In this document: positions 57,523 to 57,568 of the stretch, piece by piece | How the letters are laid out: the number at the start of each line of letters is the position of its first letter | How positions within the stretch are numbered: the first letter of the stretch is position 1 | Assembly (NCBI GenBank): GCA_905216195.1 | Contig: CAJMSX010000012.1 | Span: forward strand, 1,706-65,705 | Length of the DNA stretch: 64,000 bases | From: an uncultured bacterium | Lineage (GTDB): Bacteria > Bacteroidota > Bacteroidia > Bacteroidales > Marinifilaceae | Direction: 5' to 3' | Made by a program: the position numbers and the translations under genes | The notes under the pieces: model-generated | What the model saw: the letters and a program-made list of their open reading frames with translations, nothing else | What the model was told of the DNA's origin: nothing | Database searches by the model: none

Positions 57523-57568
57523 ACACACACACACACACACACACACACACACACACACACACACACAC
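57523..57568. repeat. perfect (AC)23 dinucleotide microsatellite
   Basis: Counted directly: 46 nt of uninterrupted AC, about 195 nt upstream of the ATG at 57763 and about 330 nt from the divergent regulator start. Confidence 0.98.

Follow-up and report, generated by a model that had tools for sequence, protein, structure and literature searches.

A type V pilus operon from an uncultured bacterium of the Marinifilaceae (Bacteroidales) has in its leader an uninterrupted (AC)23 dinucleotide repeat. By slipped-strand mispairing this repeat probably shifts the frame of a leader peptide and thereby switches attenuation and translational coupling of the operon. The DNA analysed is a stretch of 64,000 nucleotides of contig CAJMSX010000012.1 (assembly GCA_905216195.1), here called the window. 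The repeat belongs to a cassette that recurs ahead of a variety of surface-protein genes, and the anatomy, conservation, hypervariability and codon-periodic allele distribution of this cassette are directly observed.

The mechanism that we propose is the following. Transcription would start from a promoter here termed P1, and a small upstream open reading frame (uORF, ATG at 57393) would be translated into the tract as (Thr-His)n. Since a repeat unit is two nucleotides long, gain or loss of a unit moves the stop codon of the ribosome on the leader. When the number of units, n, is a multiple of three, translation would end at a TAA at 57583-57585, 24 nt before a terminator-like hairpin, and the hairpin would then form and curtail transcription and/or translation of the operon (OFF or low). 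For n mod 3 = 2, as in the window, the stop is a TAG at 57726-57728 beyond the hairpin, which the ribosome would melt on its way (ON), and for n mod 3 = 1 it is a TGA at 57764-57766, which is likewise beyond the hairpin and overlaps the pilus ATG at 57763, so that termination-reinitiation coupling might ensue (ON, possibly the highest state). This assignment of frames to ON and OFF is what we infer from the leader, and the window allele with n=23 would presumably be in the read-through frame and hence ON.

Length variation of the AC tract

The tract, (AC)23 with a trailing A, is called by Tandem Repeats Finder at 57523-57569 of the forward strand (period 2, 23.5 copies, 100% matches), in the context gtgTAA-(AC)23-A-ttctc or, more widely, GAAAATCGTGTAA-(AC)23-A-TTCTCACC. 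It is C-rich and free of G, and the G+C content of the window is 46.5%. All 18 occurrences of the 12-mer (AC)6 in the window fall within the tract, with 0.00 expected from 100 dinucleotide-preserving shuffles, and it is the sole di- to octanucleotide simple sequence repeat (SSR) of the 64 kb, the other simple repeats being two poly-C runs (C11 and C9). The tract starts 154 nt 3' of the -7 box of P1 at 57361, within an open reading frame (ORF), and lies 194 nt 5' of the pilus ATG. A preliminary description of this DNA had singled out the repeat at this place as unusual and had suggested that slipped-strand mispairing in it might switch the pilus operon; the repeat is indeed real and unusual, and a hypervariable SSR in a type V pilus leader supports the idea of a switch. 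The concern voiced there that the tract might be an assembly artefact can be laid aside, since independent assemblies of the same locus carry it and homologous tracts are found in complete isolate genomes.

Further copies of the window locus were obtained by exact-protein look-ups (L003, L004 and L005) and by a pattern scan of gut-metagenome contigs (L036, L121 and L042). The only contig from the look-ups that spans the intergenic region, L004, likewise has (AC)23 and carries three single-nucleotide polymorphisms in the left flank. In all, the alleles of this locus have n=17 (L036), 23 (window), 23 (L004), 27 (L121, which is thereby in the early-stop state) and at least 28 (L042). The last of these contigs ends within the tract, as do L003, L005 and L006, the latter from a related locus described below, and such breaks may hint at differing repeat numbers inside a clonal population. 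The scan pattern, (AC)6-N4..30-GCGCGTYAAKAT, matched at least 120 contigs, and among the matches listed the tracts are 13-73 nt long with n from 6 to at least 36, so that the comparison of repeat number among strains and metagenomes, proposed earlier as a check, reveals a large length polymorphism. Forty-three of these contigs share identical flanks (family 1) and have n=6-26, and another 17 with identical flanks (family 2) have n=6-21. In ten assemblies of the family-1 cassette, including the complete genomes CP081920.1, CP182860.1 and CP103084.1, n is 12-26. Furthermore, L158, L159, L160 and L164 have no mismatch over 2,900 nt of flank, yet their repeat numbers are 23, 15, 12 and 26. The tract thus changes far faster than point substitutions accumulate, and such fast length change is the signature of localized hypermutation. 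It should also be mentioned that short-read assemblies may misjudge the length of long tracts and often break at them.

In four family-1 contigs with short tracts of (AC)6-8 (L059, L092, L114 and L136), an additional poly-A stretch of about 8-10 residues separates the tract from ATTATC, and this stretch is a second hypermutable tract, likewise frame-changing.

Reading frames, hairpin and spread of the cassette

About 111 of the matching contigs listed carry the cassette, which with the window and the other copies gives at least 115 loci in about 34 flank families. Its elements follow in the order -7 promoter box, uORF, ATTTGG-N18-TAA, (AC)n, GCGCGTYAAKATA, terminator-like hairpin and surface-protein gene, and of these the left motif, the -7 box, an ATG after the box and the hairpin recur though they lie outside the search pattern. 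A perfect TAnnTTTG box is found 130-400 nt upstream of the tract and, in most families, 9-70 nt (mostly 24-41 nt) before the ATG of the uORF. The -7 box of P1, TAAATTTGC at 57361-57369 (forward strand), follows the Bacteroidetes sigma-A consensus TANNTTTGY (PMC12632263). The uORF begins 24 nt after it and encloses the tract, placing the repeat in a short promoter-proximal ORF; in the n=23 state it occupies 57393-57728 of the forward strand and has 111 codons (MNRQ...ENRVN-(TH)n-...), ending with the TAG at 57726-57728, 35 nt before the pilus ATG.

Upstream of the tract, nearly all families have a single frame, GTA AAC ACA, that is open over 130-400 nt and leads from the promoter-proximal ATG (130-380 nt upstream) into the tract. 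The second frame has a TAA directly before the tract, and the third is closed 11-29 nt 5' of it. A uORF ending at the abutting TAA was considered and rejected, that frame having no start codon. In related leaders the sole insertion or deletion within the uORF is of 6 nt, a multiple of three, and those in the 5' untranslated region are of 1, 2 and 4 nt. Downstream of the tract, simulation of n=20-28 in the window places the uORF stop at 57583 for n mod 3 = 0 (21, 24, 27 and so on), at 57764 for n mod 3 = 1 (22, 25, 28) and at 57726 for n mod 3 = 2, the unit not being a multiple of three; at n mod 3 = 1 the TGA overlaps the pilus ATG (57763-57765) in an ATGA at 57763-57766 of the forward strand. 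The same layout is found in the 26 tabulated families, where one frame stops at +8 to +33 after the tract and contains 1-8 stops before the main gene, and the other two are free of stops to the main ATG or to within about 35 nt of it. Compared with dinucleotide shuffles, the probability of these stop-free frames is 0.0005-0.11 in 24 of the 26 families, the exceptions being the GLUG families L117 and L060 with values of 0.36 and 0.57, and the combined Fisher p of 6e-24 overstates independence, as the families are homologous, though very diverged. The ATGA overlap with the main start recurs in at least 13 families, the window included, and in a few other families the uORF frame runs into the main ORF (L124, and one frame in L036, L042 and L051).

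The alleles themselves are distributed with the periodicity of the codon. The three classes n mod 3 = 0, 1 and 2 hold 24, 8 and 11 alleles in family 1 (chi-square p=0.006) and 13, 1 and 3 in family 2 (p=0.0007), and periods of 2, 4 and 5 units, tested on the repeat counts of the same two families, are not significant. After identical sequences had been collapsed, 43 of 75 alleles were in the early-stop frame, with one third expected (p=1.7e-5), and families are mostly early-stop in 14 of 25 cases (p=0.016).

The uORF is probably translated, and this also concerns the repetitive peptides of the ORF track, which the preliminary description had taken for artefacts of the repeat. That judgement stands for the minus-strand CVCV ORF, but the HTHT ORF at 57393-57728 is probably functional, its frame being open in nearly all families and the frames after the tract being constrained. 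A role for a conserved peptide was rejected: the N-terminal sequences of the uORF are unrelated between families, and the right motif falls into each of the three frames, depending on the family. Together with the invariant TTG of the left motif described below, this indicates that translation itself matters and not the peptide. In public annotation the family-1 uORF is called as ORFs of 70-146 residues, or missed, depending on n.

In one family-1 contig, L048, the 5' part of the uORF has been replaced about 289 nt upstream of the tract, the join being in frame at the conserved KKCIDNLAVWKIRVN end. By eye the part that takes its place resembles the N-terminus of an N6-adenine methyltransferase (…ENSCGDGNIL…GIEIDEEQY), and the join either arose by recombination or hints at a coding origin of the conserved left flank.

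The hairpin of the window lies at 57610-57660 of the forward strand and has arms at 57610-57627 and 57637-57654, which form an 18-bp stem with a 9-nt loop and a folding free energy of -26.6 kcal/mol. The sequence after the second arm is TTTGTT, and folding of the leader as a whole gives z = -4.9. It is situated between the stops, the early one lying 24 nt upstream and the two late ones 71 and 109 nt downstream. In most families a hairpin occupies the equivalent place, about 20-25 nt after the right motif, with free energies down to -33 kcal/mol and in many cases a T-rich tail, and clear T-runs are seen in L006 (GCAGAC-TTTTTTTT), in L051 and L056 (TCGTTTTTTT) and in L095 (CCCTT-TTTCATTTT). Two alignments of homologous hairpins furthermore show compensatory base changes, which affect 5 of 18 and 2 of 25 pairs, respectively. 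Of the 28 representatives scanned, 24 have the hairpin beyond the early stop and ahead of the two late ones, and the gap from early stop to hairpin is 8-43 nt where the hairpin falls within the first 100 nt or so. The fixed place and the covariation in most families suggest that the hairpin matters, and from its sequence it would be an attenuator or transcription terminator. In the near-identical alleles L061 and L095 the terminator loop, about 50 nt after the right motif, is exactly inverted (CCTGTAAAAAGG versus CCTTTTTACAGG), a hairpin-loop inversion of the template-switch type.

Two motifs bracket the tract. The left one, ATTTGG-N18-TAA at 57496-57522 of the forward strand, abuts it directly, and both ATTTGG and TAA are near-invariant over about 45 distinct flanks. 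The TTG of this motif never varies as a leucine codon would, and the constraint therefore acts at the level of DNA or RNA. Its TTG-N19-TA has the -33/-7 spacing of Bacteroidetes promoters, and the would-be -7 element (TAAACACA) is without the TTTG half of the consensus. The right motif, GCGCGTTAATATA at 57589-57601 of the forward strand, has the family consensus GCGCGTYAAKATA and does not encode a peptide, since it is read in all three frames across the window, L006 and L011. Readings of the two motifs as an extracytoplasmic function (ECF)-type or sigma-A-type promoter, as a pause site or as RNA pairing were tried, and none fits all families.

The cassette is found ahead of genes of many kinds. 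These include DUF3575 pilus genes (in many families), OmpA-like and beta-barrel porins, an Mfa2/DUF6562 fimbrillin, a SusC-like TonB-dependent receptor and giant proteins with GLUG motifs, and in family 1 it is followed by a small TPR-like protein of 159 residues and then an ankyrin-repeat protein. For the window locus itself, a protein-based scan with one genome per species gave a best DUF3575-locus orthologue of only 65% identity, and the nearest relatives of the operon are in metagenome-assembled genomes (MAGs) of Rikenellaceae, Alistipes and Tidjanibacter. An AC tract is present in two of 30 related DUF3575 loci, at the same place in both, and the other 28 have neither tract nor motif. In the Rikenellaceae MAG (L006) the contig begins with (CA)12 about 185 nt before the gene, and in the Tidjanibacter MAG (L011) there is an (AC)11 tract 236 nt before the gene; both have GCGCGTYAAGATA after the tract, as in the window, and both were found by protein homology and not by the motif.

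In the NCBI and ENA assemblies (L156-L165) the family-1 cassette is essentially identical DNA. The family-1 neighbour protein carries the name 'MULTISPECIES [Bacteroidales]' (Parabacteroides distasonis, Bacteroides stercoris and Phocaeicola coprophilus) and occurs in 13,074 index blocks of public assemblies. The near-identical DNA across assemblies and a neighbour protein named for several Bacteroidales genera suggest that this cassette resides on a widely transferred mobile element. Two further families, L050/L044 and L109/L095, are nearly identical upstream (the C-terminus of a gene reading like an AraC-type regulator, then the leader) and differ in the gene that follows, which codes for a polytopic membrane protein in one of them and for an OmpA-like porin in the second, and L069 is a hybrid of their two right flanks, all of which suggests recombination at or near the cassette.

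Competing explanations and the surrounding region

Several observations weigh against a frameshift switch acting through attenuation. The two motifs ATTTGG-N18-TAA and GCGCGTYAAKATA are not accounted for by it and may reflect an additional or different mechanism. A different frame enters the tract in L011; two or more of the three frames stop before the predicted hairpin in L060 and L117 (GLUG) and in L132 (a lipoprotein); and in L146, of the SusC family, one of the two later stops lies just before the hairpin. The window hairpin has a weak T-tail, TTTGTT, and a 9-nt loop, and was missed by a simple terminator scan. In addition, the allele counts derive from assemblies, which are incompletely independent, and the scan pattern requires at least six units and the right motif, so that short or tract-less alleles and cassettes devoid of the motif fall outside the sample.

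The variable quality of the hairpins bears on a variant in which the same frame switch would operate by Rho-dependent polarity, mRNA stability or pure translational coupling, and not by an intrinsic hairpin terminator. Ribosomes reaching the main ATG would here shield or unfold the leader and reinitiate, and an early stop would leave 100-250 nt of leader naked. Such a variant would explain why the late frames are open essentially to the main ATG and not merely past the hairpin, and why ATGA overlaps are frequent, and it accords with the weak or distant hairpins of L011, L053, L075 and L086 and with the composition of the tract. We nevertheless find it fairly unlikely, since most families have a strong, covarying hairpin at a fixed place and with a T-rich tail, although the mechanisms do not exclude each other.

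The flanking motifs may instead be taken to favour a transcriptional spacing switch, in which tract length would determine how far, or in what helical phase, an upstream operator or promoter stands from a promoter element or operator further downstream, for example ATTTGG-N18-TAA from GCGCGTYAAKATA. SSRs in promoter spacers or operators are known from Haemophilus influenzae hif (TA), Neisseria meningitidis nadA (TAAA) and Bordetella fim (poly-C), and in the present case two conserved motifs of a non-coding type directly bracket the tract, the spacing of TTG-N19-TA fits that of Bacteroidetes promoters, and candidate operator repeats and divergent helix-turn-helix genes are close by. Phasing between promoter and operator, as entertained in the preliminary description, would however give a helical periodicity of about five units, and the alleles have a period of three units (6 bp; p=0.006 and 0.0007) and none at five. 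In addition, a range of n=6 to at least 36 (12-72 bp) is too broad for a -33/-7 spacer, the would-be -7 element wants its TTTG half, the tract is situated within an ORF and well 3' of the actual -7 box, and one upstream and two downstream stop-free frames would be left without explanation. A spacing switch is accordingly improbable.

That the microsatellite is hypermutable and without function, the cassette being young and spread by mobile elements and its length variation neutral, is very improbable. The distribution of the family-1 neighbour protein over several genera would be consistent with such spread, but the roughly 34 flank families among the matches listed are highly diverged and stand ahead of unrelated genes, and only specific features are kept, namely the promoter box, the open frames, the motifs and the hairpin with its compensatory changes. 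A neutral tract would furthermore give no n mod 3 bias, and drift would not maintain two stop-free frames in AT-rich leaders. Scarcely credible, finally, is a sensor of supercoiling, also proposed in the preliminary description, in which (CA/TG)n would flip under negative supercoiling and modulate transcription: Z-DNA formation by alternating purine-pyrimidine of sufficient length is an established in vitro property and the tract is of this type, but the idea finds no specific support in the analysis, predicts a length threshold and not codon periodicity, leaves the ORF constraints unexplained and is not needed by the frame evidence.

The operon downstream of the leader starts with a DUF3575 outer-membrane protein at 57763-58845 (Pfam PF12099, E=1.9e-36), followed by an Mfa2-like anchor at 58867-59736 (PF08842, 4.5e-05) and two Mfa_like_1 fimbrillins at 59770-60705 and 60718-62340 (PF13149, 1.9e-45 and 7.6e-14), all on the forward strand, and this combination of Pfam matches in one operon identifies it as a type V (Mfa/FimA-type) pilus operon. 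Upstream and on the reverse strand are two divergent genes for membrane proteins of 411 and 377 residues (55955-57190 and 54825-55958), each with a C-terminal AraC-type HTH_18 match of 22-24 bits, the Pfam cut-off being 33.6; judged from these matches the two proteins are possible regulators of P1. NCBIfam gave no match or name for either of them or for the DUF3575 protein. Four direct repeats of ACGATTTGTCG (two exact and two at 82%) at 57255-57338 of the forward strand, upstream of the -7 box, are candidate operator sites for the HTH_18-like proteins, and one copy is kept at the same relative place in the Tidjanibacter locus L011 (1083-1093). If real, such operators would superimpose a response to signals on the repeat switch, as a level of control separate from the switch itself.

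Inverted repeats of the kind that flank invertible promoters (invertons) were sought in 56900-57900, and none flanks the promoter, no search for a recombinase gene having been made; this accords with the contrast to inversion-driven phase variation drawn in the preliminary description. Apart from the 18-nt hairpin the region has no strong inverted repeat, and what other pairs it contains (matches of 75-92% over 10-20 nt, or exact over 10 nt) are at chance level. Rfam searches of 54000-58500 (E-value threshold) and of the whole window (gathering threshold) gave no credible RNA family, and a search for tRNA genes in the window gave none. A simple scan of 57000-57900 for sigma-70 promoters and terminators likewise found nothing, but this outcome carries no weight, since promoters of Bacteroidetes are of a different kind and the loop of the hairpin measures 9 nt.

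Elsewhere in the window, the C11 homopolymer (G11 on the minus strand) at 28177-28187 is situated about 55 nt upstream of the start, at 28122, of a minus-strand gene (27043-28122) with a secreted-looking product, whose matches to OS_HP2 and choice-of-anchor D are below threshold, and this run may be a second slippage-prone regulatory tract in this genome. The C9 run at 52639-52647 is intergenic. An imperfect tandem repeat at 54280-54336, with a unit of 8 or 16 nt (AAATCAGT / TAAATCAGTAAGTCAA) in about 3-7 copies, lies just 5' of an ORF of 102 residues (54366-54674), which is without a Pfam match.

Comparison with known systems

The closest likeness is to the pil1 and pil3 loci of Streptococcus gallolyticus (Danne et al. 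2014, PMC3894217), which likewise have a promoter, a leader ORF with an SSR inside it (the unit again being no multiple of three), a stem-loop terminator, in the AC cassette a proposed one, and a pilus operon. In pil1, GCAGA repeats in the leader peptide set the stop either 39 bp before the terminator (low expression, the majority) or within or beyond it (high expression) (PMC3894217). In both systems the stop of the short form falls a few tens of nucleotides before the hairpin (39 bp in pil1, 24 nt in the AC cassette), out-of-frame repeat numbers shift it into or beyond the hairpin, and there is an upstream, divergently oriented regulator gene, a candidate one in the window. Most pil1 alleles are of the short or low form, which is paralleled by the excess of early-stop alleles of the AC cassette. 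The differences are that pil1 encodes a sortase pilus of a Gram-positive bacterium whereas the type V pilus of Bacteroidales belongs to another phylum, that the repeat is a pentanucleotide (GCAGA x22) in the former and a dinucleotide, (AC)6 to at least (AC)36, in the latter, and that the long frames of the AC cassette extend to the main start codon and often overlap it in an ATGA, an arrangement that points to translational coupling as an addition and to three states. Furthermore, the AC tract is bracketed by two conserved motifs and occurs at many loci, in many genera and ahead of many kinds of surface genes. The mechanism of pil1 has been demonstrated, whereas the AC cassette is known from its sequence.

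With the SSR contingency loci of Neisseria, Haemophilus and Campylobacter the cassette shares slipped-strand hypermutation, an association with surface structures and repeat numbers that differ between otherwise identical strains. It differs from them in the place of the repeat, which stands in a leader ORF of its own, 194 nt 5' of the structural gene, and not within that gene, as in the Opa and Campylobacter poly-G type (here the DUF3575 ORF begins only after the tract), nor between promoter hexamers, and long dinucleotide tracts are unusual in those loci. In trp and his leader attenuation, and in translational attenuation of the CTnDOT tetQ leader in Bacteroides, the position of a ribosome on a leader ORF likewise decides whether a hairpin forms, but whereas the input there is physiological (tRNA charging or a drug, for instance), that of the AC cassette would be a heritable and reversible frameshift in the DNA. 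The invertons of Bacteroidales, which act on capsules, fimbriae and SusC/D systems, resemble the AC switch in the stochastic ON/OFF expression of surface structures that is expected of it, fimbrial loci included, but the AC switch has no flanking inverted repeats at the promoter and would require no recombinase. Recent reviews describe phase variation in Bacteroides and Bacteroidales as based on inversion only (PMC11868660, PMC12632263), and we found no description of SSR or dinucleotide-repeat phase variation in this group in the full-text literature, the coverage of which was incomplete, so that a prior description is possible.

If the switch is real, a large group of contingency loci that are easy to score has escaped notice, comprising pili, porins, TonB-dependent receptors, giant adhesins and shared mobile-element genes, and ON/OFF states could be read as n mod 3 in metagenomic reads, which would offer a new means of following surface variation at strain level, evasion of immunity and phages, and colonisation. 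The cassette also accounts for the frequent assembly breaks at such sites, and since cultured strains with complete genomes (CP081920.1, CP182860.1 and CP103084.1) carry it, the proposal is directly testable. A bolder extension, which we offer tentatively and hold to be somewhat unlikely as a whole, is that the AC cassette constitutes a second general phase-variation system of gut Bacteroidales beside invertons, a portable three-state (OFF, ON and coupled-ON) leader switch that in many genera precedes genes for pili, OmpA-like and SusC-like proteins, GLUG adhesins and mobile elements. In this view a dedicated factor would recognise ATTTGG-N18-TAA and GCGCGTYAAKATA, or the two motifs would serve as an internal promoter or pause signal, and slippage, termination or coupling would be tuned in this way, a feature without counterpart in S. 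gallolyticus. What is new in comparison with the known systems is thus the occurrence of a known principle in a new phylum, together with the dinucleotide tract, the apparent third, coupled state, the conserved flanking motifs and the spread over many loci and genera.

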